Source: Candidatus Levybacteria bacterium RIFCSPHIGHO2_01_FULL_37_17 (GTDB lineage: Bacteria; Patescibacteriota; Microgenomatia; Levybacterales; UBA12049). From it: a stretch of DNA of 64,000 bases. Location of the stretch: contig MFNL01000004.1 of assembly GCA_001782035.1 (NCBI GenBank), positions 9,290 through 73,289 of the forward strand. The letters run 5' to 3'. The notes beneath the pieces were generated by a model. It did no database searches. It was not told the DNA's origin and saw only the letters and a list, made by a program, of their open reading frames with translations. Position 1 is the stretch's first letter. Every line of letters starts with the position of its first letter. Position numbers and translations under genes: made by a program. Positions 6,601 to 46,246 of the stretch are shown here, piece after piece.

Positions 6601-9600
6601 TTCTAACTGGTCAAAAATCGCCAATGCTTTCCCCGTTACTTGCACTGATAATGGTCGAGTGGCGTGGAGCACAGAAATTGGCGTTGCTGTTCCTAATCCA
6701 AATAAATTGCTAGAGTCATTATAAAAAATATTGCTGTTGTCTTCTGCCAAAACTCCGCTTGTTCCTGCAAAAACTACGGAGCCAGCTGTAAAAGTAGTAT
6801 CAATTCCTCCGTCTGCGTAAATCAATCCATCTACCTCAAGCGCGTCTGATACAAGAAGATCGTTGCTCGCGCCAACATTTGCTCCGCCGGCTGTTGCAGT
6901 CCCAATTCTGTTATATGCAACAGCAGTTGAGCCTGCGATTTGAAATACGCCACTTGTTATAAGCGACGTTCCACCGGCAGGGTCTAAAAAGTAGGTAGAA
7001 TCGTTAATGTCATAATATTGCGAACTATAAGTATTCCCGCTGCTATCAATTCTAAATTGCGTAATCCCTGATTTACTTGCCGCGATAATATCTTGATTTT
7101 CTATCTGGTCAAATATAGCCAAAGCCTTACCAGTTGCACCTGCTAAAAGAGGTCTTGTGACATATAATTGCGAAATTGGATTACTATGCCCAATTCCCAC
7201 ATTTCCTTGCCCTTTAACTACAAATCTGGCTACACCACTGTTACTTGCGGTAATTAGATCGCCTGTTTTATCGTTATCAACAACAAGCGCTGCGAATGAA
7301 GTATGAGCAGAAATACTTGCAACCGGATTTGTCCCCTGGAATTTCCCTCCTGCTCCTATTAAGCGAAATGTGGCAGAGCTAGTGGCTTGAGCTCCGAAAA
7401 GGAAATCAACAGTACTGTTATTGGTATAGAGAGCTCCGGATGTTTGATTCCAGAATTCATCTGTTGTTACTCCAGTCCCACAATATCCAAATGCCGGACT
7501 TGTCCCACCAAGCAAACACTGGGATGAAGTTCCTGCTGTAGTCTGTGCTAAAACTCCGCTTCCATTTGTGTACAAAGGCCCACCATTTGAGGTAAAAGCG
7601 GAGAATGTGATTGTGCCGCTTGATGTTATACCTGTTGCCGCTGTAATAGCGCCTGTTGAGTTGATTTGGAAATCATCTCCGTCACCAACTGTAAAAAGGG
7701 AAGCAGGAGATGAGTCTCCGATTCCCACATTTCCTCCTGCAAATATGGCAGAGTAGTTAGTGCTTGATCCGGATTGGGAATCTATATACAAACCGTAAGA
7801 TGTTGTAGTCCCACTCAAACCTTGATTATTGACAAGAACACCGTATTGGGTGGTTGGTTTCAAGGAGCCAAGGGCCACAGGGGAACCTATTCTTGCCGTT
7901 GTCCCATTTGTTACTGCTCCCGAAACAGCACTGTAAACATTTGCAAAGTCTCCTGCAATTGCGTCCGTTATTGTAACACTTGAAGGGGGAGCAAAAAATG
8001 CAGCCAAAAGTCCACCCCTTGCCAGTGCAATGCTGGAGCTTGGAGCAAACGTGGGTGCAACATCTATTCCCGCGGGAATATTACCAGCTCCGTTAAAAGT
8101 ATTTCGCAGCCTTACTGAGGCAGCGTCATTGCTATTAGTTATTGTAGAGGTCACGCTTATTATGCCGACATTTGATCCTGTTGTAGTCAAACTTCCGGAA
8201 ACTACTACTTGACCATTTGCAACATCTAACAGTTGTGAAGGTGTTGTCGTACCAATTCCAACTTTCCCGCTATAACCGTTATTGGGCATAATTATTAATT
8301 GTCCGCTAATTGATGCTTGAGTTTGGTTGCTTAAGTTGGAAAGTCCTGTAAATGCAAATTTAGCACTAGTTGTCGCTTGGCCTCCGATAAGAAGATCAAC
8401 AGTTGAATTGTTAGGATACAAAGCTCCGTTTGTTTGGTTCCAGAAGAAATCAAGACTTTGGCCGGTTGCACAGCTCCCAAAACTGGGAGTCGTTCCACCA
8501 AGCAAACACTGAGTAGTTGTCCCTGCTGTAACTTGAGCAAGCTGCCCGCTTCCATTTGTATACAACGGACCACCATTCGAAGTAAAAGTAGAAAATGTAA
8601 TTGTTGAAGAAGCGGTAATGGTTCCTATATTTAGTAAATTTCCGGAGGAGTCAATTCTTTGCGTGCCCCCACTACCACCAGTATTTATTCCTGTTGTTCC
8701 ATTAAGCGTTGTTCCTTGAAATGTTCCATTTGTTTGAAGATTTCCTCCAATTGCTTTAATAAGATATATACCCCCGTAAAAATTGACTCCTTTCCCATCA
8801 TCTGTAAAGGCTAAGCCGCCGCCTGCAATTGTTACCCTGTCAGTAGGGGAAGCTGTGCCAACGGTTAGATTCCCTCCTGTTCCCGCATTTGGATATACGA
8901 CTAAATTTCCAGAAACTGTTGCAGTAGTTGTTCCGCTATTAACATTTAAAACCGCAAATTTCGCAGAAGTTGTTGATTGTCCGCCTATTAATAAATCTAC
9001 TGTTGAATTGTTAGGATATAGTGCTCCATCAGTTTGGTTCCAATAAAGTTCATTAGAAGGAGTACCTGCAGGACAGCTGCTCCAAGACGGAGCAGAGGCG
9101 CCTGAGAGCAAACACTGTCCTGCCGTATTTGTATTTGCCCCTGTCAAAACTCCTGTTGATACAGTTGCATACAGTACGTTATTGTTAGCGTTAAATCCAC
9201 TGAATGTAATAGTACCTCCCGCGGATAAGTTGTTAAGCCCTGTTACGCTCTGGTTATTTCCCGTTACAGCTCCTGTTAATGTTAGCGCTCCTAAACGTAG
9301 AGTACCACCGGAGGCTGAAATATCGTGATTTCCGGTGGCTGTAAAGGTTAAATCTGAATCTGCACCGCTTAAAGTAAGCCCAGTCGTGCCCTGAAGAGTC
9401 GAATCTCCGGCTAAAGTTTCGTTTCCGCTGTTATCAATTGTAAACTGGGCAATGCCTGAAGCTGATGCGCTAATAATAGGACCGGTTGAGTCTTGGTTAA
9501 TAGTAAATGCGCTTCTGCCGGAGCTTGTGGCAAGAACTGAGAACTCATCATTTATTTGTACGCTTCCGGGTACTGTTGAAATATTTCCTGAATTTGAGTT

Positions 9601-11349
9601 ATTAACTAAAGGCTTCTGTAAGTCTATTTTTCCCAACCCATCGGGAACAACTTGTACGTTTGAGCCTGTTCCAGTATTCGTAGTAAGCAAAAGAGGCTGA
9701 CCCGAAAGTTTAAATGTGCCTCCACTTGCGGTAAAAGTTGGATTAGCAGAGCCTCCGATTGTTAAATTACCGCTTGAATCAAGTGCTAAAACTACGTCAC
9801 TCGTACCTGCACCTGCAGCAGTTGACGGCGGGAGTCCCTGCAAAGTTTCCGAATTTGCAGCATACGCAACGGTTGCTAACTGCTGGCGTGGGGTTAGTTC
9901 GTCTGTTGATTCAATTGTCACACCCAAATAAAGCGCAGCGTTTTCGCTAAACAGGGTAGAGGGAATTGAGGTAACATTTCCTAGAATGTTGTTAAAAATT
10001 CCGTCCGTGTCGGGATTTGCCCTGTCAACTTCCTGCCACAAAAGGGCAGAGCCTGAAGCTGTTATATCGTTGTAAATTGCATAACGAATTAAAGTGCTAG
10101 AGGTAATTGGATTATCGTTTATATCTGTTAACCTACCTTGAAAGGACAAGATTCTGGGAGGAGCAGTAGGTAGGGCTGCGAATGTTGGCTGAGACTGGGG
10201 TTTTGCAAAAAATGCATTATATAAACCAAAACCCACAACCGCTAAAAAGATAATTAAAACCGCAAAATTAAAGTAATGAGCAATTGCATAAGAATGATAT
10301 CTTATGTACCACTTTGGTCTTGTATATCGAGCGTGAAAAATAAGCTTTTGAATTAGGCTCATTTGCTTTGTAGATACTGCAAATGGAGCATAAAGCTTCT
10401 TAGATATATTTTTTATACCTAGCAAATCCCTTGGAGTAATGTTTTTAATGGCAACTGTAGCCTCGCTTTTTTTAAAAACAGGCTGGCCTCTTAGTTTCCA
10501 TAAAGCCTCGATTCCCTTAGACGCAAATGAGGCAAGGGGTGCAGTTAAGATTGCGTCGAAAGTAAGTGAGCCTGCTCTGGCAAGTTTTTGAGCCAGCCTT
10601 AAGGGAGGGAAAGCCGAGTAGCCTTTATGGCTAATGGCTAAGGGTTTATGGCTAAGGGTTTCGGGAATATTTAGAGGCTGTTTTGCTTTGGAAATATTTT
10701 CAACCGAATAATCTCTGCTTACAGTTATTCCTTCTTGGTTCGCCCAGGCTAGATAGCGGCGAAGCGAAGACAATTTTCGATTGACAGTAGCCGGCGAAAA
10801 GCCTACCTCTTGCGTTAGTCTTTTCTTATATTCGTTAATCAACTCCGTATTTAAGGTTGCAAGTATTTCCTCGCTCGTACTGGTATTTAGCACTTGTTTA
10901 GCCCAAGCAATAAATTGTTTAACGTCAATGATATAGTTTTTTATAGTAAGATGTGATGATTTATCTTCAAAGAGGAAGTTTTTAAAATCTTTTAGGCTAA
11001 ACGGATCCTTCTTCGCCAAGGCTTCGGCGGATTCGGTCTTTTGCTGTTCGAATATATTAACTTGAATGATGTCCTCATCTTTGAGGAACTTAAAGAATTT
11101 TCGCAAGCTCGAAACATGCCTTTCCATTGAACTTGCAGATAAACTCTCCGCACTTTCATTCCTGTATGCCTGGATAAATTCAAAGTTAATAGAGTTAGGG
11201 GAAAATGTTCTTCCGGTTTTAGTTTCAAACCAGCGGATGAAATGCGATATATCAGAGATATAATTTTTAACCGTAATCTTAGAAGGAGTTTGTGGTTGTG
11301 AAAAAAGATAGTCTTTAAATCGCGTAAGTATAATAGGCAGGTTATTCAT
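3658..11349 (-). CDS. Giant (2563 aa) membrane-anchored surface fibre-like protein. Order of parts: N-terminal tandem tyrosine-recombinase core-binding (SAM-like) domains; one TM helix; Thr/Ser/Gly/Asn-rich repetitive ectodomain; internal peptidase S74 (phage tail-fibre intramolecular chaperone) domain; a further 558-aa C-terminal region
   Basis: Single ORF in the track. Residues about 20-110 and 125-215 each match the phage-integrase N-terminal SAM-like/core-binding pattern (ITVKNYISDISHFIRWF...MERHVSSLRKFFKFLKDEDII and LTIKNYIIDVKQFIAWA...TVNRKLSSLRRYLAWANQEGI). There is a hydrophobic helix YFNFAVLIIFLAVVGFGLYNAFF around aa 355-378. The ectodomain is low-complexity and rich in T/S/G/N with repeated modules. 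The motif SSDARLKKDI...GFIAQELYEA...IDYGRITPLIVKGVQDQQLQIE (Ser about aa 2005) matches the S-D-x-R-L-K Ser/Lys dyad and downstream consensus of the endosialidase/tail-fibre C-terminal intramolecular chaperone domain. Confidence 0.85.
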   Translation of the reverse strand: MNNLPIILTRFKDYLFSQPQTPSKITVKNYISDISHFIRWFETKTGRTFSPNSINFEFIQAYRNESAESLSASSMERHVSSLRKFFKFLKDEDIIQVNIFEQQKTESAEALAKKDPFSLKDFKNFLFEDKSSHLTIKNYIIDVKQFIAWAKQVLNTSTSEEILATLNTELINEYKKRLTQEVGFSPATVNRKLSSLRRYLAWANQEGITVSRDYSVENISKAKQPLNIPETLSHKPLAISHKGYSAFPPLRLAQKLARAGSLTFDAILTAPLASFASKGIEALWKLRGQPVFKKSEATVAIKNITPRDLLGIKNISKKLYAPFAVSTKQMSLIQKLIFHARYTRPKWYIRYHSYAIAHYFNFAVLIIFLAVVGFGLYNAFFAKPQSQPTFAALPTAPPRILSFQGRLTDINDNPITSSTLIRYAIYNDITASGSALLWQEVDRANPDTDGIFNNILGNVTSIPSTLFSENAALYLGVTIESTDELTPRQQLATVAYAANSETLQGLPPSTAAGAGTSDVVLALDSSGNLTIGGSANPTFTASGGTFKLSGQPLLLTTNTGTGSNVQVVPDGLGKIDLQKPLVNNSNSGNISTVPGSVQINDEFSVLATSSGRSAFTINQDSTGPIISASASGIAQFTIDNSGNETLAGDSTLQGTTGLTLSGADSDLTFTATGNHDISASGGTLRLGALTLTGAVTGNNQSVTGLNNLSAGGTITFSGFNANNNVLYATVSTGVLTGANTNTAGQCLLSGASAPSWSSCPAGTPSNELYWNQTDGALYPNNSTVDLLIGGQSTTSAKFAVLNVNSGTTTATVSGNLVVYPNAGTGGNLTVGTASPTDRVTIAGGGLAFTDDGKGVNFYGGIYLIKAIGGNLQTNGTFQGTTLNGTTGINTGGSGGTQRIDSSGNLLNIGTITASSTITFSTFTSNGGPLYTNGSGQLAQVTAGTTTQCLLGGTTPSFGSCATGQSLDFFWNQTNGALYPNNSTVDLLIGGQATTSAKFAFTGLSNLSNQTQASISGQLIIMPNNGYSGKVGIGTTTPSQLLDVANGQVVVSGSLTTTGSNVGIISVTSTITNSNDAASVRLRNTFNGAGNIPAGIDVAPTFAPSSSIALARGGLLAAFFAPPSSVTITDAIAGDFANVYSAVSGAVTNGTTARIGSPVALGSLKPTTQYGVLVNNQGLSGTTTSYGLYIDSQSGSSTNYSAIFAGGNVGIGDSSPASLFTVGDGDDFQINSTGAITAATGITSSGTITFSAFTSNGGPLYTNGSGVLAQTTAGTSSQCLLGGTSPAFGYCGTGVTTDEFWNQTSGALYTNNSTVDFLFGAQATSSATFRLIGAGGKFQGTNPVASISAHTSFAALVVDNDKTGDLITASNSGVARFVVKGQGNVGIGHSNPISQLYVTRPLLAGATGKALAIFDQIENQDIIAASKSGITQFRIDSSGNTYSSQYYDINDSTYFLDPAGGTSLITSGVFQIAGSTAVAYNRIGTATAGGANVGASNDLLVSDALEVDGLIYADGGIDTTFTAGSVVFAGTSGVLAEDNSNIFYNDSSNLFGLGTATPISVLHATRPLSVQVTGKALAIFDQLENQDLLTASSSGTTKFKIENGGSVDIFSSATDDSIFRVAANSTANYIQSGSALTSGSAKDLYFSSIFGATVWAQIKSDGLFVIGNISTDGDIATTAEELYVEGDIETNANLRVDGTGGITVAGAATTGLNFTNTGVTTDINLQNGETIDNNTNGFIKFTGKAIFDNNGGTVDAVTAGASDVHIGSQIASAGTAGEVSRLTLQPYGWLDGPFHLVARDTASSAFIDWRYDATNLLTIEYNGNVGIGDTSPAALFTVGNGDDFQVSSTGNISSNATGTAFTLSGAATTAISISNTGVTTDINLQNGETIDNNTNGTISFTATTGAFSGALTVDGGAIFNATVDSATDVDISYNRSSSACASCWVLAVENTNTNANQNVMLIQAGVADSTANTWFVAFRDSDEVNQGNIEGCAGNCTFFETSSDARLKKDIVNTHFTIDDLMKIKVRDFTWISDESRVTGFIAQELYEAYEFAVSPGTNGDDFKSNPWGIDYGRITPLIVKGVQDQQLQIEGQKTKMVNIEADLAISNSGNLSIIEQNPDQFIVKESGRNITRIAGLAEAFIGNIRSGIINTRNIVVTGSANIGSITTSSLNVTADSVTIAGQSLRNYIARVVNETITQQQLISPIASSEQISTNLLNPLAKNPDAKIAIKLNDNKGESKLEIQNASGSAVASIDSSGNISANNATLSGTLRAQRIIADQIEGLNIQTATLSANYVTNNYYTASQAATSEPFPTLSASSSGTSNYELASSNYINIATFSSQLAYVDNLNSQTAVFSQGLTTYGITTLSDTSIVGQLAINGTLILAENSINILGSDLNLQPLRQGGISIMAGLIYIDPNGDAKFGSDVTVEGTLYANNIGIKNSELRIQNETDEVLKVDSLGNLVASGAGTFSKLNLSIAQQALAAGNEVLATGSAGTITLKANKSEITVKNTLVTENSLIYVTPVSQTLGQSLYLLRQLPQESFTVGISVPVPIDVKFNFLIIN
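4977..5345 (-). other. Peptidase S74 / intramolecular chaperone auto-processing domain inside the giant protein (predicted self-cleavage at the Ser of SDARLK)
   Basis: Minus-strand codons tca gat gca aga tta aag aag gat ata at 5337-5311. Protein motif SDARLKKDIVN...RDFTWISDESRVTGFIAQELYEAYEF...WGIDYGRITPLIVKGVQDQQLQIE. Confidence 0.65.
7340..9130 (-). repeat. Three copies of a ~55-aa module (QCLLGGT.P.FG.C..G....FWNQT.GALY.NNSTVDLLIGGQ.T.SAKF) encoded at about 7340-7520, 8340-8530 and 8940-9130. Further duplicated modules (DINLQNGETIDNNTNG at about 5690-5740 and 6150-6200; IGD.SPA.LFTVG.GDDFQ..STG at about 5800-5890 and 7660-7740)
   Basis: Repeated peptides are visible in the giant ORF translation. 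They are mirrored by near-identical antisense ORF peptides in the track (e.g. 8327..8512 vs 8783..9046, and 5708..5971 vs 7568..7756). Confidence 0.7.
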
Positions 11350-37563: not shown

Positions 37564-37773
37564 ATGCCAGATCAACTTTCAATAAATAATCTGCCAGATC
37601 TTCTAACAGTACGGGAAGTTGCTCAAATTTTGCGCGTTTCCCCCTTAACTATTAAAAGATGGGGTAAAAGAGGAAAATTGCCCGCAATCAGAATTAACTC
37701 AAGAGGAGATAGACGCTACAAAAAAGAAGCAGTCCTCTGGCTTTTAGGAATTGCCGGCCCAACCACAGAATAG
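37564..37773 (+). CDS. Excisionase-family helix-turn-helix DNA-binding protein (Xis/AlpA-like)
   Basis: 69 aa; LLTVREVAQILRVSPLTIKRWGKRGKLPAIRINSRGDRRYKKEAV matches the excisionase-family HTH pattern (LLTV.EAA..L.VS..TI.R....G.LPA.RIG.R.RI). Confidence 0.65.
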   Translation: MPDQLSINNLPDLLTVREVAQILRVSPLTIKRWGKRGKLPAIRINSRGDRRYKKEAVLWLLGIAGPTTE

Positions 37774-37831: not shown

Positions 37832-38230
37832 TTACTTTAGCTCTACAGTAGCGCCTGCTGCAGTTAATTTTTCCTTAGCTTCATTTGCTGTTTGTTTGTT
37901 AACTGCTGTCATTACTTCTTTTGGAGCTGTATCTACCAATGCTTTTGCATCGGCGAGTCCCAAAGTTGGAACTAATTCTCTAATCACTTTAATTACTGCA
38001 ATTTTGTTTGCTCCACCTGAGGCAAGCATTACATTAAATACAGTTTGTTCGCTAACTTCTTCTCCTGCTTCAGCTGATGCTGCTGCTCCTGCCTGCGCCG
38101 GTGCGGCTGCAACCATTGATTGAGCAGAAACTCCAAACTTCTCCTCGAGTTTCTTTACAAATTCCGAAAGTTCGAGAACTGACATTTCTTCAACTGCTTT
38201 TAAAAGATCTTCTTGATTTACTTTTGCCAT
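37832..38230 (-). CDS. rplL: 50S ribosomal protein L7/L12
   Basis: MAKVNQEDLLKAVEEMSVLELSEFVKKLEEKFGV...; the ATG overlaps the TGA stop of rplJ. Confidence 0.9.
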   Translation of the reverse strand: MAKVNQEDLLKAVEEMSVLELSEFVKKLEEKFGVSAQSMVAAAPAQAGAAASAEAGEEVSEQTVFNVMLASGGANKIAVIKVIRELVPTLGLADAKALVDTAPKEVMTAVNKQTANEAKEKLTAAGATVELK

Positions 38231-38934
38231 CAATTCTCACCTCCTTTATGATCTGTTTCTTGATTTTCAGGTTGTTCAGCTGCTTTTTCTTCTGCTGTTT
38301 CTGCAAGTATTGTTTCAGGTTCTTTTTCTTCCTGAGCAGTAGCTTTTAGTGGTTGTTGAGGAGCAGGTTCTGATATCGGCTCGGGCGCAGGGGCTACATC
38401 CGCAGGTTTTGCTTGAGCTACGACATTTAAAGTCATTACAAGTTTTTGCAAATTCCAGTTTAAAGCACGGTGAAGACCTGTAATAGGGGATTTAAGGCCA
38501 AAAACAAGCTGGGTAAGCAAAACTTCTTTGGTAGGAAGCGTGGAAAGCTTAAGAATCTGCTCGCCGGTTATAAAATCGCCTTCCATTATTCCAAACCTTA
38601 CATTGGGTAAATTAAGTTCTTTAATTACTTTTGCAAGTGCTTTAAGAGGGGCAATAATGTCGTTATATAAAAATAAAGTACCGGTTTGTCCATCTAATGC
38701 GTACTCTCCTTCTAGTTTTTTGTCAGTTGCCCTTACTAAAAGCGAATTTTTAGCAACGACAAATTCGGATTCTGCCTTTTTAAGCTCTTTTTTTAGGCCC
38801 TCTATTTGCTTGTGAGTGAGTCCGGCATAGTTTGTAAAAACAACAGCCTTAGCTTTGCCAAACTTATCGGAAAGAGAAGATACTATTGCCATTTTCTTTT
38901 CTCTATTTTTGCTTACTTTTGGTTCGTTGCTCAT
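38230..38934 (-). CDS. rplJ: 50S ribosomal protein L10 with a Pro/Ala/Glu-rich C-terminal extension of about 70 aa. Start taken at ATG 38934 (MSNEPK...)
   Basis: KKMAIVSSLSDKFGKAKAVVFTNYAGLTHKQIEGLKKELKKAESEFVVAKNSLLVRA aligns to the L10 N-terminal region. TGA stop at 38230-38232. Confidence 0.85.
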   Translation of the reverse strand: MSNEPKVSKNREKKMAIVSSLSDKFGKAKAVVFTNYAGLTHKQIEGLKKELKKAESEFVVAKNSLLVRATDKKLEGEYALDGQTGTLFLYNDIIAPLKALAKVIKELNLPNVRFGIMEGDFITGEQILKLSTLPTKEVLLTQLVFGLKSPITGLHRALNWNLQKLVMTLNVVAQAKPADVAPAPEPISEPAPQQPLKATAQEEKEPETILAETAEEKAAEQPENQETDHKGGEN

Positions 38935-38940
38935 AAAATA

Positions 38941-38966
38941 AAAAAACACTCCTAAAACAGAGTGTT
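38941..38966 (-). promoter_or_regulatory. Hairpin plus U-tract immediately upstream of the rplJ start codon. A candidate L10-leader attenuator that sequesters the GGAG Shine-Dalgarno
   Basis: Minus strand reads AACACTC TGTTTTAG GAGTGTT TTTTATTTT ATG. The 3' stem arm contains GGAGTG 13 nt before the ATG. Confidence 0.45.
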
Positions 38967-39276
38967 AACGAGTTCTAAGATTGAACTCTAGTTTACCGCT
39001 CGACAGGTCTTATTTTTGCGCCTGTTGTCTTAGGTTAAACCATTTTAACAAAGGCTTGTTAAAACGTCAAGTCAGGATTTTTGCCTCGAAGATATTCTTT
39101 TTCAATCTTAGGAGGAATAGGGCGGAATTGAACAGTATCTTTTTCTGGTGTTTTTACAGCAGCATTAAAAACAGGTACTTTTTCGGTCCAAGAACGTAAA
39201 TTTGATATAACTCTTTCTATCATAACTTGAGGTGGTATTATAACTTATAACTCAATAAATTACAATCTGTTACAGT

Positions 39277-40266
39277 TTAAAGCCAGCCAAAAATCGGATC
39301 ATTAAAGTTATCAGGGCGGCTGTTTGTTGCTATTCCAGGCTGGTATCCAATGTAGAAATCAATTTCTCCTTTTTGTAAATCACATTTTTCTGTTTGATCC
39401 AGAATAATTTTGGCAATTTCATGAGTGGAACTCATTGGCATTTCCAATGACTCATTAGAGCTTAATCTGTTAAGAGCTTCAAAGACCGGGCGAAACTTGT
39501 CAATTAGATCTCCGGCATCAGTCCCTCTTAGTAAGGGAGCTATAAAATCTATGAATGTTGCGCCAGTTATCCTTGCTAAATCTCTAAGAGCAAGACTGCC
39601 ATCTGCTTTCGTTGCGCCAACCGGATAATAAAACCAAGGACCAGAATATTCTGATTTCCTCTGTGCGTATTTAGAAATAGTGCTGTCTAAAACTACAATT
39701 TTGGAATTTGAGTTAATGTTTCCATTCTCAGCTAGAGCTCTTGCAAGTCTTAAGGTAGAATCTGCATTTGTGTGCAGGCCTGTAAGAATTGATTCGGGAA
39801 GGCTCATAAGCTCTTCGAGTTCTTGGGTTTCTTTTTTAGCTAAATCTATAGGAATTTTTCCATGAAGTTCTAATTCTTTTTGTAATCTTAAAATAGCCAA
39901 TCCAACTTTTCTTTTTGTTGTTATAAATCCTTCTGCGGCAAGAGCAAAAAGGTCTATGGCCTGTCTTTCTGAAAGCCCCATTTCTAAATAGGCGTCTTGG
40001 ACTTGGTCCGGTTTATTAAGGTCTGCAACAAATGGTTTTATCTGCCCAGTGCTATTTGCTGCAACCTCGTCATACAAAGATTCGAATTTCGCCCAAGATC
40101 TTGTTCCAACATATACTGTATAGCCTTTGGCAGCCATAAGTTTTACGATCTCGGCTCCCGTTTTTCCTCCTCCGCCTAATAGCAGTACCGGATTCTTTGA
40201 TTGGGGTTCGCGTTCTGTTGCAACTGTTTGTTCAAATGGAATTGTTTTTCTTGTTTCAGCGCTCAT
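39277..40266 (-). CDS. Rossmann-fold NAD(P)-binding protein (saccharopine-dehydrogenase-like N-terminus); function unknown
   Basis: 329 aa; PVLLLGGGGKTGAEIVKLMAAKGYTVYVGTRS dinucleotide-binding motif. Lies between the rplA fragment and rplJ. Confidence 0.5.
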   Translation of the reverse strand: MSAETRKTIPFEQTVATEREPQSKNPVLLLGGGGKTGAEIVKLMAAKGYTVYVGTRSWAKFESLYDEVAANSTGQIKPFVADLNKPDQVQDAYLEMGLSERQAIDLFALAAEGFITTKRKVGLAILRLQKELELHGKIPIDLAKKETQELEELMSLPESILTGLHTNADSTLRLARALAENGNINSNSKIVVLDSTISKYAQRKSEYSGPWFYYPVGATKADGSLALRDLARITGATFIDFIAPLLRGTDAGDLIDKFRPVFEALNRLSSNESLEMPMSSTHEIAKIILDQTEKCDLQKGEIDFYIGYQPGIATNSRPDNFNDPIFGWL

Positions 40267-40313
40267 ATAAGTTAGCGACAGTAGAATATATCAAAGTATA
40301 GCAGGTAAGTCAA

Positions 40314-40694
40314 TTAAGCCCCAATTTTAATCCCGGGGCTCATTGTGGATTTGAGTATAATGCTTACAATATTGTCTTTTTTTACTGCCGAAATCATAGC
40401 TTCGATATTTTCTGAAAGTTTATCAGTGCCAAAAGACATTTTGCCAACTGTTAAGTGCATAATAGGGTTTTTGGCTTCAGTTTTAAAGTTAATCTGCCCG
40501 CTTTCGTATGCAGCCTTTGAAATTAGAAAGTTAGGTTTTATTGAAAAGATATGGTATATTTTTGGCGCGGGAAGAATTGCGAGGGTAAAGTTGACGGTGG
40601 AATTTGCATAAGACTTATTTGTATGAGCAGAAAAAAGCATTAGAATAATAACTATAATCAAAAACTTTAATAAAAAAAATCTTATTCCTGCCAT
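40314..40694 (-). pseudogene. Chimeric ORF whose C-terminal 60 codons are a duplicated rplA 3' end (remnant copy)
   Basis: The 126-aa ORF ends ...YESGQINFKTEAKNPIMHLTVGKMSFGTDKLSENIEAMISAVKKDNIVSIILKSTMSPGIKIGA. This is near-identical to the rplA C-terminus. Its N-terminal 60 aa are unrelated and hydrophobic. Confidence 0.7.
40321..40500. repeat. Direct repeat copy A (about 180 bp) of the rplA 3' end
   Basis: 40330-40472 is identical to 45010-45152 (143 bp exact). Identity decays with scattered mismatches out to 40321 and 40500. Confidence 0.85.
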
Positions 40695-40861
40695 AAAATT
40701 TCTCCTTGCTTTGAAGGACAGAAGAAAAATCTAAAGTAATAGTCTTAAGCATTTTGTACCAGTACGTAATATTAACTATCAATTATTTATTCAAAGAAAG
40801 GTTAAGAGATAATACTATCTTAATTTAAAGTTGTAAAGAGGAATAAAACAATCAAAAGTGG

Positions 40862-43120
40862 TCAGTTTGCTGTTACAGTTATGGTCATTTCTATTGTATA
40901 ACTTCCGGCGGTTTGCTCTGCGGGAATAGTTTGACTAATACTTGTTCCTGTTAAATCCCAATAACAATTTGTTCCGGCAGATGCCCCGGCAGTTAACAAA
41001 GTTATAGAATCAGTTACTCCTTGAGAAAATGAACCTTGTGATCCCAAAGAAAGACCGGTATTATTGCATCCCGACTTTGGCGTTATAGTCGCTCCGGTAG
41101 GATCAATGCTCATTTGCCCCCCATAACTGTCTGCATCTCCTCCATCTCCTGCCTGAGCAGTTGGGTCGTTGAAATCATATTTAGGAGTTCCCGATGACCA
41201 TAAGGCAGTAGGGCCTGCGTTTGCTGCAACCGTTAATGTCCATTGTGCATTTCCGGTGGAATTATCTACTCTAATTTTTTCAGAAGATATGCCAAAAGTT
41301 CCCGTTGTTGTTTGATAAATAAGATTAAATATTTTTGTCGTCATTGTAAGAGTAGGACTTGTTACAGGATCTCCGTTAGAATCCACTATATCGGCAGAAA
41401 GAGTTCCCCCCGCCGACTGAATTGTAATCACTCCTGAGGAATAGGCACTGACTTGCGGATTAAAACCGTCACTCGTGATACCGTAAACATAGTAATCGCC
41501 CGGGGTCACGCCTGTAGTGTCCCAAGAGCAAGTTGAGTTAGTTCCTTCGGCTGCACTAGCGCAAGCGCCGGAAATAGCCACACCATCAAGGCCGGAATTG
41601 TTTGTATCGTAATAAAACGCTGCGGTAACTACATCGTCGGTGTCTGCTAATGTATAAGTAATGTTATAAGAATCACCTACAGTTACCGTGTCGCCAGTTC
41701 CATCCGGCTGGGAAATACTTAATGTTGGAGCAGGATTTGCTACCTGAACCGCAATACTTAAAGCATAATAAGTTGTATTAGCTACCTTATCCCAGGTAGT
41801 TGCCACTAAATCCGTCCCGTCTGTAGAGTAGGTATTTGAAGTATCGCTGAACCAGCCCGTTGCATTAGTGGCGGCTTGAACAGTTGTATCTGTAGAGTCT
41901 TGGCGAAGAATAAAAGTTCCTCCACTTGATTCTGCTCCTTGATAAGCTGAAAGGCGGGAAAAAGAAGCTGCAAATCCTAGTGAGAATTGGGCTAGACTTT
42001 CCGCTACATTAAGAGACACCATTCTGCCTCCCAGATATTGAGGTTGATTGTCCACAGCAAATACCGCACCTCCCGTATTGCCTAAAGCAAGGAAAGAAAT
42101 TCCGCCTGAACTATCATAAAGCTCTACCATAATATTTTGGACTGTTAGCGTGCCTGTGTCTGTTAATGTGGTAGATTGAAAGGAGAGTTTGTCTCCGTCA
42201 TTTACCACTTTAGTATTTGAGGTATCCTCTTTAAGCCCCGTTTGTCCTGAACTATAAGTTACCGATGGAGCGGTTCCCGATCCTGTTGCTCCGCTTATGG
42301 TAAAGGTTGTATCCGTTGTTCGTGTATTTGCCGAGACAAAAACTTGAATATTTCGGATGGTTACAGTTCCTGTAGGTATTTTAATTAAAGTCTCACCTAT
42401 TGCCTGAGTGGTTGTTTTGGTAGAAGTTCCTCCTAAATGTCGGTAGGCTGTTTCCGAGGCTACCGTATAAGCTAAAGAACCCGATGCTCCCAATCGGGAT
42501 ACAGTTCCTGTTGATGGAGTAAATACAAATCCTATGTAGGTAAAAGTCCAGTTGGAATTACCCGATCCACCAGAGGCTACATATAAAGCAATCGTGTCCC
42601 CTGCGGAAACTGAAAGTGTGTGGGTACTATCTACTAGCTCTCCTGCCCCAACAGGAGAACCTCCTGGAGCCAGTGTAAGCTTGGGGTCGTTTGCTCCGTT
42701 TGCCTCACTGCCGTTTTTATAAAAAGCAACTCTAGGGTCAGAAGCAGTCCTATTTCCGCTCTTTATATTGGCCGAAAGATAAGAAATAGTCCCAGCAGTT
42801 CTGAAAGTTACGACCTTATTGGCGTGGTCGTCTAAACCCAGAATTAAATCTCCAGTAAAAGGGGAAGCAAAATAGTTCCTGTTTGTAGGGGCTACCGCTA
42901 CTCCATTAAGGTCGGACTGGATTATTCGGGAAGGGTATGCTGACGCAGCCAGTGATTGTGGAATTAGTGGCGGTATTGCAGTGTTTTTCCAAACATGTGG
43001 CCAGCCTGAAAAAATCCATGCGAAAATTAAAAGGAAAATATAAACTTTCCGCCAAATATGATATTGCGCAGAATGGGATGATTTATTTGTCCGTTGGTGG
43101 AACTTTAATTTTGTCATTTT
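40862..43120 (-). CDS. Large secreted Thr/Ser/Gly-rich surface protein with a WxL-like C-terminal domain (NAQWTLTVAAN ... NCYWDLTGTSISQTIPAEQTAGSYTIEMTITVTAN)
   Basis: Track ORF 40862-43195 (777 aa). Start moved to Met26 (MTKLKF, nt 43120) to reduce overlap with the upstream gene; a signal-peptide-like segment follows. Confidence 0.6.
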   Translation of the reverse strand, partial: KMTKLKFHQRTNKSSHSAQYHIWRKVYIFLLIFAWIFSGWPHVWKNTAIPPLIPQSLAASAYPSRIIQSDLNGVAVAPTNRNYFASPFTGDLILGLDDHANKVVTFRTAGTISYLSANIKSGNRTASDPRVAFYKNGSEANGANDPKLTLAPGGSPVGAGELVDSTHTLSVSAGDTIALYVASGGSGNSNWTFTYIGFVFTPSTGTVSRLGASGSLAYTVASETAYRHLGGTSTKTTTQAIGETLIKIPTGTVTIRNIQVFVSANTRTTDTTFTISGATGSGTAPSVTYSSGQTGLKEDTSNTKVVNDGDKLSFQSTTLTDTGTLTVQNIMVELYDSSGGISFLALGNTGGAVFAVDNQPQYLGGRMVSLNVAESLAQFSLGFAASFSRLSAYQGAESSGGTFILRQDSTDTTVQAATNATGWFSDTSNTYSTDGTDLVATTWDKVANTTYYALSIAVQVANPAPTLSISQPDGTGDTVTVGDSYNITYTLADTDDVVTAAFYYDTNNSGLDGVAISGACASAAEGTNSTCSWDTTGVTPGDYYVYGITSDGFNPQVSAYSSGVITIQSAGGTLSADIVDSNGDPVTSPTLTMTTKIFNLIYQTTTGTFGISSEKIRVDNSTGNAQWTLTVAANAGPTALWSSGTPKYDFNDPTAQAGDGGDADSYGGQMSIDPTGATITPKSGCNNTGLSLGSQGSFSQGVTDSITLLTAGASAGTNCYWDLTGTSISQTIPAEQTAGSYTIEMTITVTAN

Positions 43121-44213
43121 CCTCGACTGTATAAGGAGGTTTGAGTTTATTGACTTTAGCAAGTAGTTTCCAGGAAACACTATGTTTTTTGGCAATAGAA
43201 TTTATATCCTCGCCAGCAATTACCGTATACTCCATCCAATGTTTTTTAATCCATCTTTTGCGTTTCCATGATAGCAAAAATATAACAATACAAACAATCA
43301 AGAACAAAAGAATTGAGGCTTCAATTGCAGCTGCCGCCGGAGTAGGAAGGCTAAAAAATATAATTGGTGAACCAGTAAGCCGAGCTAATTCCTTACCGCT
43401 TTTTACTCCAACACTTGCTTCTTTATTGGCATCGTATTCTACAACCAATTCAGACTTATACCAACCTCCCCAGAAGGGTTTTTTGAGTTCGAAGTTCCAC
43501 TCAGACGTTTGGTCTCTTAAAATTACATATTCTCCTCCGGCTTTTGCATAGTCAAGACCGAAGATATATTTAGTTGTCACGAATACATTTGTATCAATTG
43601 AAACGTTTCCTATGTTTTTTACCCTTGGTTGAAGTGTATAATCTTCTTTATTTTGCAATATATTGAAATTAACAATTTCAAGTTTTCTTACTATTTCCCC
43701 GGGTACCGTTAGCACCACCCGCAATCCTGTTCTAGTAGAAATAACAGCTCCGGATTGATTTTCCTGTTTTTTCTTTTTTTCTTGGATTAAAATGCAGCCA
43801 TTGTGTTCACCAACGCTGGCATTTTTTGGAACTGTTATATTAAAATCAACAATTTCATTGGTTTTAGGATCAAGAGTAACTTCGGTTTTATCCAGCTTTA
43901 TCCATGAGCCTACTTCAATTTTTTGCTCGGAAAATTGCTTACACGCAAAAGCTCCTCCTGTTGAAGGGGTTGAATCTGTTGCATATATTAATAGCGTTTT
44001 TCTTTCAGCGCTATTGTTAATAACAAGAAGTCCGTCTTTAACAGACTCCCCAGGAGTTAAGCCGTGAATGAATATCGATTCCGTGCGCGCCAGCTCCGGT
44101 CTAGGATAGGCAGGACGACCTCCAATGCCTCCGTATTCTATGGCAAACGCCTGTAAATTAAATATAAATATAAAAAAAACAGCAGAAGCTGTTAATCCGA
44201 GTTTACGTTTCAT
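43083..44213 (-). CDS. CscA/DUF916-like surface protein with a C-terminal TM and a cytoplasmic LysM domain
   Basis: 376 aa; signal peptide; VGSWIKLDKTEVTLDPKTNEIVDFNITVPKNASVGEHNGCILIQE, the motif shared with ORFs 12783-13754 and 15266-16297; TM ILLFLIVCIVIFLL; LysM-like YTVIAGEDINSIAKKHSVSWKLLAKVNKLKPPYTVEENDKIKVP. Confidence 0.6.
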   Translation of the reverse strand: MKRKLGLTASAVFFIFIFNLQAFAIEYGGIGGRPAYPRPELARTESIFIHGLTPGESVKDGLLVINNSAERKTLLIYATDSTPSTGGAFACKQFSEQKIEVGSWIKLDKTEVTLDPKTNEIVDFNITVPKNASVGEHNGCILIQEKKKKQENQSGAVISTRTGLRVVLTVPGEIVRKLEIVNFNILQNKEDYTLQPRVKNIGNVSIDTNVFVTTKYIFGLDYAKAGGEYVILRDQTSEWNFELKKPFWGGWYKSELVVEYDANKEASVGVKSGKELARLTGSPIIFFSLPTPAAAAIEASILLFLIVCIVIFLLSWKRKRWIKKHWMEYTVIAGEDINSIAKKHSVSWKLLAKVNKLKPPYTVEENDKIKVPPTDK

Positions 44214-44217
44214 AGAT

Positions 44218-44925
44218 TTAACTAGCTACGACGGAGAGAGTCAAATTAATATCGTAATCACTAGCTGCTGGCTGTTCGGCTGGAACCTTTTGGCTAATGG
44301 ATACACCTGTCAGTTTCCAGTCTCCAATATCATCGGAACTGGCTGCTCCGGTTAAAACTGTGATCGAATCAACGGTTCCTTCGTTAAAAGCATTGCTGCT
44401 TCCCTTGGTAATATTGGTTGTTGCGCAGCTTGCGCATTGTCCAACCGCAAGTGTTCCAACGGATGGATCAACAGTCATCTGACCTTTTAACGAATCGGTA
44501 TCAGCTCCATCTGCGCATCCTGCAGGACTTCCAGTAGGATCATTAAAATCCATATCGGTACCACCGCTGTCCCAAAAATCAGTAGGGTCGGAAGCTGCAA
44601 GACTAGCCACCCAGCCATCATCTGCAGCATCGGGATTGGTTACATAAATAACTTGCGAAGCGGTACCAAAAGTACCTGTTGAAGTTTGGCAGCTAAAGCT
44701 GAAAGTGACTGCTCCCATGGCTACCGCAGGGCTACTAACAGTTACATAGCTTGCGTCGACTATATCAACTGCAAGTGAGCCCGCATTAATAGTTTGAGTA
44801 AAATTTGAAGTTGCGGAGGCAAATACCTGTGACAAAAAGCTGATAGAACTTATATAGACTACAAAAAATATAAATATAAGTCTTTTGTTGTCTAATAAAA
44901 ACTCTCTTAAAGTATAAGAAATCAT
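44218..44925 (-). CDS. Small secreted WxL-like surface protein
   Basis: 235 aa; signal peptide; GWVASLAAS ... DWKLTGVSISQKVPAEQPAASDYDINLTLSVVAS parallels the C-terminus of the 777-aa protein. Confidence 0.55.
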   Translation of the reverse strand: MISYTLREFLLDNKRLIFIFFVVYISSISFLSQVFASATSNFTQTINAGSLAVDIVDASYVTVSSPAVAMGAVTFSFSCQTSTGTFGTASQVIYVTNPDAADDGWVASLAASDPTDFWDSGGTDMDFNDPTGSPAGCADGADTDSLKGQMTVDPSVGTLAVGQCASCATTNITKGSSNAFNEGTVDSITVLTGAASSDDIGDWKLTGVSISQKVPAEQPAASDYDINLTLSVVAS

Positions 44926-44993
44926 CCCCTAATATTAGTGAAACACTTTTGATCACGAAATGCAAGTCATAAGATTAGCTTAATTGGTCTACT

Positions 44994-45818
44994 TTACGGT
45001 CTAATCTTGATCCCGGGGCTCATTGTGGATTTGAGTATAATGCTTACAATATTGTCTTTTTTTACTGCCGAAATCATAGCTTCGATATTTTCTGAAAGTT
45101 TATCAGTGCCAAAAGACATTTTGCCAACTGTTAAGTGCATAATAGGGTTTTTAGCCTCGGTTTTAAAATTAATTTGCCCAGCCTCATATTTTTTGACAAC
45201 ATCCTCCGGTTTTTCTGTAATTGTCCCGTTTTTGGGGTTTGGCATTAAGCCTCTTGGGCCTAAAACCTTAGCAACTTTGGCAAGTTTTGGCATCATGTCC
45301 GCAGTTGCCACCAAAATATCAAAATTAACTACTCCTTTTTCTACTTCCGCAATTAATTTATCATCCGCAATGGCTACTCTTGTTTTTTTCCCTGTTCCAT
45401 TTGGAAGAGTTACGTTTCCGGAAATACCGGAGACAGTGGTATTTATGTGAAGCTCCACTGTTTCATCGAATTTGCCTCTTTGGACTTTGCCCAAAATTTC
45501 CAAACCCTCTGATAATGAATATATTTTGTTTTGCTCAACTTTTGCTGCAAAATCGTTATATGTGTTTGAGTGGGGAGCTTTTTGAAATTTTTCTTTTTTT
45601 GTCTTTTTTTCTTCCTTTTTAACTTCTTGAGAATCTTTGACTTCTTCTTTTATTTCTTCCTTCTGCTCGGAAAGTTTAACTTCTTCTACATTTTCCTCTT
45701 TTTGAGCAACTTTTTCAGCCTTTTTTGCCTCTTTTTTGGAATCACGACGCTCTTGTAGTCTTTTAGACTTTGCCGCTTCCTCCAGTTCGTCAAATGATTT
45801 AACTCTTACCTTTCCCAT
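44994..45818 (-). CDS. rplA: 50S ribosomal protein L1 with a K/E-rich N-proximal insertion of about 75 aa
   Basis: L1 domain ...LGPRGLMPNPKNGTITEKPEDVVKKYEAGQINFKTEAKNPIMHLTVGKMSFGTD...; the extension is KSKRLQERRDSKKEAKKAEKVAQKEENVEEVK.... Confidence 0.9.
   Translation of the reverse strand: MGKVRVKSFDELEEAAKSKRLQERRDSKKEAKKAEKVAQKEENVEEVKLSEQKEEIKEEVKDSQEVKKEEKKTKKEKFQKAPHSNTYNDFAAKVEQNKIYSLSEGLEILGKVQRGKFDETVELHINTTVSGISGNVTLPNGTGKKTRVAIADDKLIAEVEKGVVNFDILVATADMMPKLAKVAKVLGPRGLMPNPKNGTITEKPEDVVKKYEAGQINFKTEAKNPIMHLTVGKMSFGTDKLSENIEAMISAVKKDNIVSIILKSTMSPGIKIRP
45001..45180. repeat. Direct repeat copy B, the 3' end of intact rplA
   Basis: See copy A. Confidence 0.85.
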
Positions 45819-45820
45819 AC

Positions 45821-46246
45821 TTATTGAACCTTCACTCCCATGCTTCGGGCGACTCCTTCAACAATTTTAACTGCTTGGGGGAGTTCGTCTGTGTTTAAAT
45901 CTTCCATTTTGTCTTTTGCAATTTGCTCTGCTTGTGCTTTAGACAAAGTTCCAGCCACTTCTGTCCCGGGTTTTTGCGCACCCCTTTCTTTCCCTAAAGC
46001 TTTTTTAATCATTTCTGCAATTGGGGATTTTTTGACAATAAAAGAAAAAGTTCTGTCTTCATAAACTGTAATTACAGCAGGAACGATAGTTCCTTTTTGG
46101 TCAGCTGTTTTGTCGTTAAATGCTTTAACAAACTCCATAATAGGGAGGCCGTGGGGGCCTAATGCTGTTCCAACGGGTGGAGCTGGAGTCGCTGCTCCTG
46201 CGGGAATATTTATTTTTATAATTGTCTTAACTTTTTTTGTTGCCAT
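45821..46246 (-). CDS. rplK: 50S ribosomal protein L11
   Basis: MATKKVKTIIKINIPAGAATPAPPVGTALGPHGLPIMEFVKAFN. Confidence 0.93.
   Translation of the reverse strand: MATKKVKTIIKINIPAGAATPAPPVGTALGPHGLPIMEFVKAFNDKTADQKGTIVPAVITVYEDRTFSFIVKKSPIAEMIKKALGKERGAQKPGTEVAGTLSKAQAEQIAKDKMEDLNTDELPQAVKIVEGVARSMGVKVQ

Follow-up and report, generated by a model that had tools for sequence, protein, structure and literature searches.

A probable surface-protein island bracketed by two copies of the rplA 3' end in a Candidatus Levybacteria genome

Genomic islands lodged at the 3' ends of housekeeping genes, ribosomal-protein genes included, are already established. In streptococci, integrative conjugative elements (ICEs), as well as integrative mobilizable elements (IMEs), target the 3' ends of rplL, rpsI, rpmG, guaA and lysS (PMC4701971). 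The locus analysed here is a 4.7-kb unit found between rplA and rplJ in a 64-kb stretch of DNA (hereafter the window), which matches the NCBI metagenome-assembled genome (MAG) GCA_001782495.1 (MFOU01000006.1) of Candidatus Levybacteria (candidate phyla radiation, CPR; Microgenomates), from groundwater of the Rifle aquifer data set. In this unit, a three-gene cassette encoding predicted surface proteins has a copy of the rplA 3' end on either side, in direct orientation. The unit is probably an old, integrase-less genomic island that arose by Campbell-type recombination in that 3' end. With the streptococcal elements (PMC4701971), it has in common a position exactly at the 3' terminus of a gene that is conserved, essential and highly expressed and is left intact, direct repeats ending at the stop codon, and an adaptive cargo that includes surface functions. 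The streptococcal elements carry a tyrosine integrase at one edge and are flanked by repeats of 12-54 bp; the island of the window, in contrast, has no integrase, a repeat of ~195 nt made of two diverged rplA alleles, rplA as its target and a CPR host.

A second parallel is provided by the ssrA islands of Dehalococcoides (PMC3146451), in which a variable region also lies 3' of a single-copy essential gene and its islands are bounded by direct repeats of the gene's 3' end. Tandem repeats are found there, as in the related contig L017 described below, many of these islands are devoid of an integration module, and large serine recombinases occur, as in contig L126. The Dehalococcoides repeat is, however, a 20-bp segment of the tmRNA gene, and the integrase DsiB is encoded in neighbouring islands, whereas no cognate recombinase was found at the window locus. 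The merodiploids and tandem duplications generated by transformation (PMC3784515) offer a third comparison: RecA-dependent recombination between short repeats would give a junction like that of contig L041 (see below), and competence genes are present here too. In those cases, however, resident DNA is duplicated and no operon is imported, and the likeness to a CPR locus would be one of analogy. No known principle is overturned by the present locus; what is unusual is the target, rplA, not reported earlier, the CPR host, and the long mosaic repeat composed of two alleles.

As regards the cargo, the closest described systems are the WxL/Csc clusters (PMC10599100, PMC1534035), found almost entirely in the Firmicutes orders Lactobacillales and Bacillales (PMC10599100). 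The cassette of the window resembles them by its small single-domain secreted protein, its large protein with the same C-terminal domain, its DUF916 protein with a transmembrane (TM) helix, and a D-W-x-L motif near the C-terminus of the common domain. It differs from them by the lack of any WxL Pfam match and of DUF3324, by a LysM domain located after the TM helix, and by its CPR-wide distribution. Surface operons of the WxL/DUF916 type are widespread in the CPR, though the literature treats them as a Firmicutes feature.

The CPR bacteria, or Patescibacteria, are tiny episymbionts, for the most part not in culture, which probably attach to their hosts through their surface proteins. How surface genes are exchanged in this group is little understood, and descriptions of mobile elements are scarce. 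The present locus offers a tangible trace of gene acquisition, open to verification in the sequence itself, and a second independent case is found in another species.

The rplA-tail repeat and the rplA-rplJ interval

All coordinates are positions in the window, and all genes of the locus are on the minus strand. Protein identities at the locus are given as Pfam matches, and relatives and other contigs are labelled L003-L137. Read along the minus strand, the order is secE, nusG, rplK, rplA, the genes of the 235-aa, 376-aa and 777-aa cassette proteins, a chimeric open reading frame (ORF) of 126 aa, a gene for a short-chain dehydrogenase/reductase (SDR)-like protein, a 54-aa ORF, the L10 leader, rplJ and rplL (Table 1).

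A repeat search detected two segments of 186 nt with 94% identity (40314-40499 and 44994-45179, spacing 4680), which constitute the sole long repeat of the window besides paralogous segments within a giant gene. In-register comparison delimits an exact core of 143 nt, and comparison at the codon level extends the homology to codon -64 (~195 nt); in both copies, the homology stops exactly at the stop codon. The tail of rplA includes the sequence ACAATGAGCCCCGGGAT. A preliminary description of this DNA had placed a 180-bp repeat at 45001-45180 and 40321-40500. Nucleotide alignment confirms the repeat and its 143-nt exact core but not these limits, as the repeat begins at the stop codon (44994/40314) and covers ~195 nt. 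The same description had recognized a chimeric ORF at the distal copy, which is indeed an in-frame fusion of 126 aa (40314-40694), and three co-oriented genes between the copies, which are all found on the minus strand at 40862-44925.

The 11 mismatches in 186 nt are grouped at the two ends of the repeat; a mismatch-free run of at least 143 nt would be expected with P ~5e-6 if they were random. Over the full homology 12 codons differ, nine of them by synonymous changes at the third position (codons -64, -63, -60, -58, -55, -54, -53, -5 and -4). The other three are non-synonymous (A/S at -62, R/G at -2 and P/A at -1) and concern residues that are variable among L1 proteins, while the 47 central codons are identical. 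The divergence between the copies in the left flank is ~28%, similar to that between the window and its relative L042. Because nine of the 12 differing codons are changed synonymously at the third position around an identical core, the two tails are two functional rplA alleles from diverged lineages, joined by recombination or by a conversion tract, and not a gene and its decayed local duplicate.

An exact search with the repeat core in the metagenome contig collection gave no match. The diverged end of the distal copy (40314-40345, minus strand) contains a perfect 6-bp GC-rich inverted repeat, AGCCCC-N12-GGGGCT, over the last codons, without counterpart in the copy attached to rplA; it could be a feature resembling a recombinase site or a product of chance.

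The closest syntenic relatives of the locus are L137 and L042, in which the core of L1 is 78% and 75% identical, respectively. Synteny between L137 and the window extends over >6 kb on each side (L33...SecE-NusG-L11-L1 and L10-L12-HTH-GalT-WecG-MreB-PEGA-sortase). The rplA-rplJ interval of L137 contains only a gene for a 242-aa acyltransferase and a 56-aa ORF, L042 has the same arrangement, and the cassette is absent in both. This comparison lends support to reading the repeat-bracketed DNA as an insertion with respect to these two genomes; the situation in which close relatives carry the same genes without repeats is not encountered in either. At the DNA level, synteny with L137 stops at window position 45003, 9 nt before the rplA stop, and restarts at the SDR stop codon (39278). 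The last ~16 nt of rplA and the downstream spacer are unlike those of the syntenic relatives. The rplA tail of L137, with the 9 bases that follow it, can be aligned to the distal copy at 40509-40306, past the stop codon. Because this alignment is extended beyond the stop only at the distal copy, the distal side would be the ancestral chromosomal side and the proximal tail the incoming one.

The SDR gene is 40% identical to a 350-aa gene occupying the same interval in L043. Its position is a separate replacement slot, filled by an acyltransferase gene in L137, L042 and L017 and by an SDR gene in L043 and the window. The Rossmann-fold gene pointed out in the preliminary description is correctly placed between rplA and rplJ, but it is not part of the repeat-bracketed unit. 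That rplA is usually next to rplJ, a premise of that description, is true of ordinary bacteria, where rplJ is found 10-400 nt 3' of rplA in the control loci, but not of this clade. Among 24 Levybacteria and other Microgenomates relatives, the interval almost always contains differing lineage-specific genes, or the operon is broken, a situation found in Levybacteria, Woesebacteria and other Microgenomates alike. The boundary between rplA and rplJ forms a hypervariable hotspot in Levybacteria, as it does in other Microgenomates. Large signal-anchored proteins are often encoded directly 3' of rplA in Levybacteria (L017, L018, L020). The control set comprised ~80 loci; a scan of metagenome contigs for L1 gave mostly distant non-CPR bacteria, which were used as controls only. 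In scans of viral contigs the cassette family was absent, and the L1 matches were full-length genes.

A comparable footprint is found in L017, which belongs to another species of Levybacteria (L1 60% identical). The terminal 28-mer of rplA occurs there three times, and a 120-nt copy of the tail (75% identity) directly follows the gene of a 714-aa beta-helix/PA14 secreted protein, a cargo different from that of the window and bracketed by these copies. The distal copy of L017 encodes a plausible alternative C-terminus of L1, with eight synonymous differences in addition to conservative replacements. It is followed by TAA-AT-CTGCC...ATG of the acyltransferase gene, compared with TAA-CTGCC...ATG at the uninterrupted rplA-acyltransferase junction of L042; the uninterrupted arrangement is found in both L042 and L137. 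Among the 24 genome-contig relatives (L017-L040), only L017 carries rplA-tail repeats; none was detected in the 22 others having enough downstream sequence, nor in the ~80 control loci. The motif CAATGCyTGCCCCGTAAAATCGC is present just 3' of the rplA stop in two Levybacteria (L017:10802-10840 and L018:4618-4650), in both cases ahead of homologous beta-helix/PA14 secreted proteins; in L018, five secreted paralogues stand in tandem 3' of rplA.

The predicted surface-protein operon

The 235-aa protein is 43% identical over 188 aa to the C-terminus of the 777-aa protein (E=3.6e-36), and the association of a small and a large protein with a common C-terminal domain is observed with the same arrangement in L126 and L128. 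A D-W-x-L motif is conserved near the C-terminus of this common domain. The 235-aa protein has 732 CPR-wide homologues with 62-76% identity, all annotated 'hypothetical', while 894 homologues of the 376-aa protein (53-62% identity) are distributed across CPR phyla. The latter protein matches PF06030 (DUF916) with 32.6 bits for a cut-off of 27.3, contains a TM helix visible in its sequence, and matches PF01476 (LysM); no match to DUF3324 was found in it. None of 30 family members matches the WxL Pfam models at E up to 5, and no NCBIfam match was obtained. An AlphaFold2 (AF2) model of the 235-aa protein, with a mean predicted local distance difference test (pLDDT) score of 93.5, is all-beta; an earlier run with 30 sequences (pLDDT 58.7) was too poor to be used. 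This model has no significant match in the PDB, where only weak pilin-like matches were obtained (E >=0.035), and a sequence-profile search of the PDB gave no match. The WxL-like label given to these proteins at the outset is accordingly to be qualified: a WxL-type identity is supported by the architecture of the operon and by the DUF916 match, but not by the WxL Pfam models. A function at the cell surface would be in keeping with this assignment.

The LysM domain of the 376-aa protein (residues ~293-376) is located after the single TM helix and the stretch KRKRWIKKH, and its predicted position is cytoplasmic. Such a position is odd for a peptidoglycan-binding module, and the arrangement is kept in hundreds of CPR homologues. 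In one population (window position 44325; L003 position 5865, sample ERZ27254846), the nonsense mutation G201* cuts the 235-aa protein short immediately ahead of its invariant D-W-x-L motif, in what amounts to a naturally occurring loss-of-function allele of this cassette gene.

The cargo is mobile across genomic contexts. Throughout the CPR phyla, the three-gene unit retains 53-76% identity; the contexts in which it is found are unrelated, and rplA is never its neighbour. In L126 and L127, the closest cassette homologue adjoins genes for a large serine recombinase and an Xre protein, and two apparently identical tRNA-Thr genes in inverted orientation lie on either side.

Several observations concern these homologous clusters. 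The segment of ~9.9 kb in question (L126:5110-15029, also in L127) is bounded by the two tRNA-Thr(TGT) genes, which are inverted and apparently identical, the identity extending into flanking sequence; the 3' end of the large serine recombinase gene overlaps one of the two genes, the segment includes the Xre-type helix-turn-helix (HTH) gene, and the whole may be an invertible or mobile element bearing the same surface operon. The three-gene operon of WxL/DUF916 type is found in Parcubacteria lineages, Kerfeldbacteria, Peregrinibacteria, Gracilibacteria and Woesebacteria (window, L126, L128, L130). Genes with bAvd or 23S_rRNA_IVP domains, which are those of accessory proteins of diversity-generating retroelements, adjoin homologous clusters (L128:8365-11494 and L126:15519-15866), which hints that these clusters may be targets or neighbours of such retroelements.

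Probable origin of the island

The most satisfactory account of these observations, and a probable one, would be an entry by a single crossover of Campbell type within the terminal ~190 nt of rplA. On the DNA that came in, there would have been the 3' fragment of a different, functional rplA allele of Levybacteria, the conserved CPR surface-protein operon and the beginning of a fourth gene, cut short. The crossover would have preserved an intact rplA and placed another rplA tail at the island's distal end, and the identity of the central 143 nt would stem from a conversion between the two tails, either later or associated with the integration. A circle or a tandem copy may still arise by recombination between the two repeats. 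The integration of tail-bearing DNA in this manner would explain at once the direct repeats, the intact rplA and the composition of the repeat from two alleles.

The distal junction provides further indications on the incoming DNA. A promoter-like site, an AAGGAG ribosome-binding site (RBS) and a signal peptide make the start of the chimeric ORF look like that of a real gene, and a fourth cassette gene, truncated, is probably the source of its 5' part. This part shows a faint likeness to the N-termini of cluster proteins (E about 0.08). An origin of this 5' half from the resident 235-aa gene located upstream of the SDR homologue of L043 was rejected, as there is no similarity. The fusion of the rplA tail to a gene start equipped with these signals points to an illegitimate joining event in the past of the imported DNA and not to a clean attP.

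An additional lead is given by L041, a contig of 1.1 kb that is an exact hybrid, with 0 mismatches in 1103 nt, of the predicted junction of a circle or tandem copy. It contains in this order the 3' end of the large gene, the chimeric start, the core, the rplA tail and the start of the small gene. As it is a single MEGAHIT k141 contig over the 143-nt core, and as no reciprocal empty-site allele is recorded, L041 is a lead to an excised circle or a tandem copy and not a proof of it.

Several points weigh against this account. No recombinase or integrase was found among the cassette proteins or any called gene of the 64-kb window, which extends to the whole window what the preliminary description had reported for the cassette. 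The 143-nt core of L041 exceeds k, and a mis-join in the assembly graph is possible. The direction of the event, that is, which tail is foreign, is read from only ~9 nt of similarity 3' of the stop codon, and comparison of the tails with those of relatives does not clearly show the ancestral tail beyond this extension. An empty-site allele within the species, with an L1 ending in ...IKIGA, was not found in the protein collection, where the 90% cluster of L1 consists of this sequence alone. The island is present in all contigs of the species, and is thus fixed and not demonstrably mobile. The identical 143-nt core requires an extra conversion step under every model. Lastly, the cassette, described at first as foreign DNA, has no foreign signature: its GC3 (0.28-0.32, compared with 0.30 +/- 0.03) and its synonymous codon usage are native, and its higher GC content comes from codon position 2. 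A foreign origin based on composition was consequently rejected, and this native composition implies that the event is old or that the donor was of similar composition.

As for the machinery, the crossover may tentatively be assigned to host homologous recombination after DNA uptake, a route slightly favoured because the 64 kb contain no integrase and encode the competence proteins ComEC, ComEA and DprA. A site-specific integrase that was lost or acts in trans is a possible but doubtful agent, and the rest of the likelihood is left to other routes.

The main competitor of Campbell-type integration is a true site-specific island, in which a tyrosine or serine integrase would have recognized the conserved end of rplA encoding ...STMSPGIK as attB, the tail brought by the element keeping the gene intact. 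With an integrase module later deleted or located elsewhere in the genome, the island would be a cis-mobilizable element. Several features are in keeping with this model, which nevertheless seems rather unlikely. The end of the repeat coincides exactly with the stop codon, as also reported for the ICEs in rplL (PMC4701971), the common unit of the three copies of L017 is the last 28 nt of rplA, as in tandem accretion, and the breakpoints in both species fall at GAGyCCsGG(G/A)AT. The homologous cassette of L126 adjoins a large serine recombinase, integrase-less islands with direct repeats of a gene's 3' end are known at ssrA in Dehalococcoides (PMC3146451), and L041 matches an attP junction. Against it stand the lack of an integrase in the 64 kb, the length of the repeat (~195 nt with a 143-nt exact core, compared with the typical 12-54 bp), and a distal junction located inside a truncated gene with its own RBS and signal peptide. 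The lengths of the repeats also differ between species (~195 nt in the window, 120 and 28 nt in L017), and the sole excisionase-family HTH gene of the window (37564-37773) is conserved in the island-less L137, on which ground a link between this gene and the island was rejected. The preliminary description had interpreted the duplicated gene end as the footprint of site-specific integration or of homologous recombination, with the rplA terminus as attachment site. The footprint is retained as that of a recombination with a second functional rplA allele; the attachment site is kept as a doubtful possibility for the reasons just given, and the novelty of a ribosomal-gene terminus as target is reduced by the ICEs already known at the 3' ends of rplL, rpsI and rpmG (PMC4701971).

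The IntI integrase, attI site and attC sites that characterize integron gene cassettes were not recognized: the window contains no integrase, and the repeats are coding rplA sequence without notable structure (z = -2.1). A rationale for the repeat based on RNA structure was rejected on this z value and for lack of a Rfam family.

A bolder proposal is that the rplA 3' end constitutes in Levybacteria a dedicated and recurrent capture site for promoter-less surface cassettes, served by a trans-acting recombinase or by competence and RecA. This is improbable on present evidence. If true, each cassette would bring or leave an rplA tail, and variable surface genes would be placed under the transcription of a ribosomal-protein operon, in a functional analogue of the integron platform built on a ribosomal gene terminus. 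The large secreted proteins encoded directly 3' of rplA in the window, L017, L018 and L020 might be explained in this way.

A purely local origin is very improbable. It would require the rplA 3' end to have been partially duplicated in tandem, in situ around resident genes, by slippage or unequal crossing-over, the distal copy being a decaying pseudogene fragment and no foreign DNA being involved. The native GC3 and codon usage of the cassette, the fixation of the island in all contigs of the species and the variability of the interval across the whole clade agree with it. However, nine synonymous against three non-synonymous codons, the latter at variable residues, flank an identical 143-nt block, as expected of selected alleles and conversion and not of neutral decay; the syntenic relatives are devoid of the cassette; and the duplication of a tail alone leaves the 4.5 kb of operon between the copies unexplained.

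That the structure stems from faulty assembly, by collapse or duplication of a repeat or by a chimeric scaffold, a danger already noted at the outset, is of negligible probability: the core barely exceeds the assembler k of 141 and the short contigs L009, L011 and L016 end at the repeat, but both junctions are spanned by contigs of >10 samples and several assemblers (original ANAN16 scaffolds, MEGAHIT k141 re-assemblies, JGI, two NCBI MAGs), the same genes are carried by the two NCBI MAGs, and the copies differ at both ends in a codon-structured manner and are therefore not the product of a collapsed or duplicated assembly. The interruption of Logan unitigs and of some MEGAHIT contigs at the repeat is expected of a true repeat.

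Expression context and neighbouring genes

No terminator-like site was found between rplA and the first cassette gene, and because of this the island is probably co-transcribed with rplKA by read-through, as judged from the sequence. The rplJL genes keep their own control region, composed of an L10 leader and a promoter-like site. As rplJ retains this leader, the island is located between two transcription units, rplKA and rplJL.

Table 1. Features of the rplA-rplJ region, in the order of the minus strand
Feature	Coordinates	Strand	Evidence or remark
rplK	45821-46246	-	
rplA, L1, 274 aa, Lys/Glu-rich N-terminal extension, intact	44994-45818	-	PF00687, 2.4e-32
Proximal repeat copy, last 64 codons and stop of rplA	44994-45188	-	exact core 45010-45152
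Spacer from rplA to first cassette gene, 68 nt, without terminator-like hairpin	44926-44993	-	
Small secreted cassette protein, 235 aa, signal peptide and one all-beta domain	44218-44925	-	no Pfam domain
WxLIP-like protein, 376 aa: signal peptide, DUF916/PGBD, C-terminal TM helix, LysM	43083-44213	-	PF06030, PF01476
Large cassette protein, 777 aa (751-aa start in gene callers)	40862-43195	-	C-terminal ~190 aa homologous to 235-aa protein
Intergenic stretch	40695-40861	-	promoter-like site 40837-40809; AAGGAG RBS 7 nt before ATG of chimeric ORF
Chimeric ORF, 126 aa, distal tail fused in frame to 62-codon stretch	40314-40694	-	
5' part of chimeric ORF, 62 codons, signal-peptide-like	40509-40694	-	sequence
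Distal repeat copy, 64 codons and stop, second rplA allele	40314-40508	-	PF00687, 4.3e-10; exact core 40330-40472
Promoter-like site TTGACT-17-TATATT, TG-extended, directly 3' of distal stop, before SDR gene	40285-40313	-	
SDR-like Rossmann protein, 329 aa, outside repeat-bracketed unit	39277-40266	-	PF00106
Promoter-like site upstream of L10 leader	39070-39042	-	
L10 leader, sub-threshold Rfam match	38931-39052	-	RF00557, 40.9 bits (gathering score 44), E=4e-4
rplJ	38230-38949	-	
rplL	37832-38233	-	

The score of the L10 leader, just under the Rfam gathering score (40.9 compared with 44 bits), suggests that the L10 leaders of the CPR have diverged from the curated family. The excisionase-family HTH gene mentioned above encodes a BldC-like protein of 69 aa on the plus strand (37564-37773), convergent with rplL, and occupies the same position in L137. 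At some distance from the locus, a giant protein of 2563 aa (3658-11349, minus strand), with two Phage_int_SAM_1 matches and one Peptidase_S74 match in Pfam and internal repeats at 7364-9042, is probably a huge surface protein.

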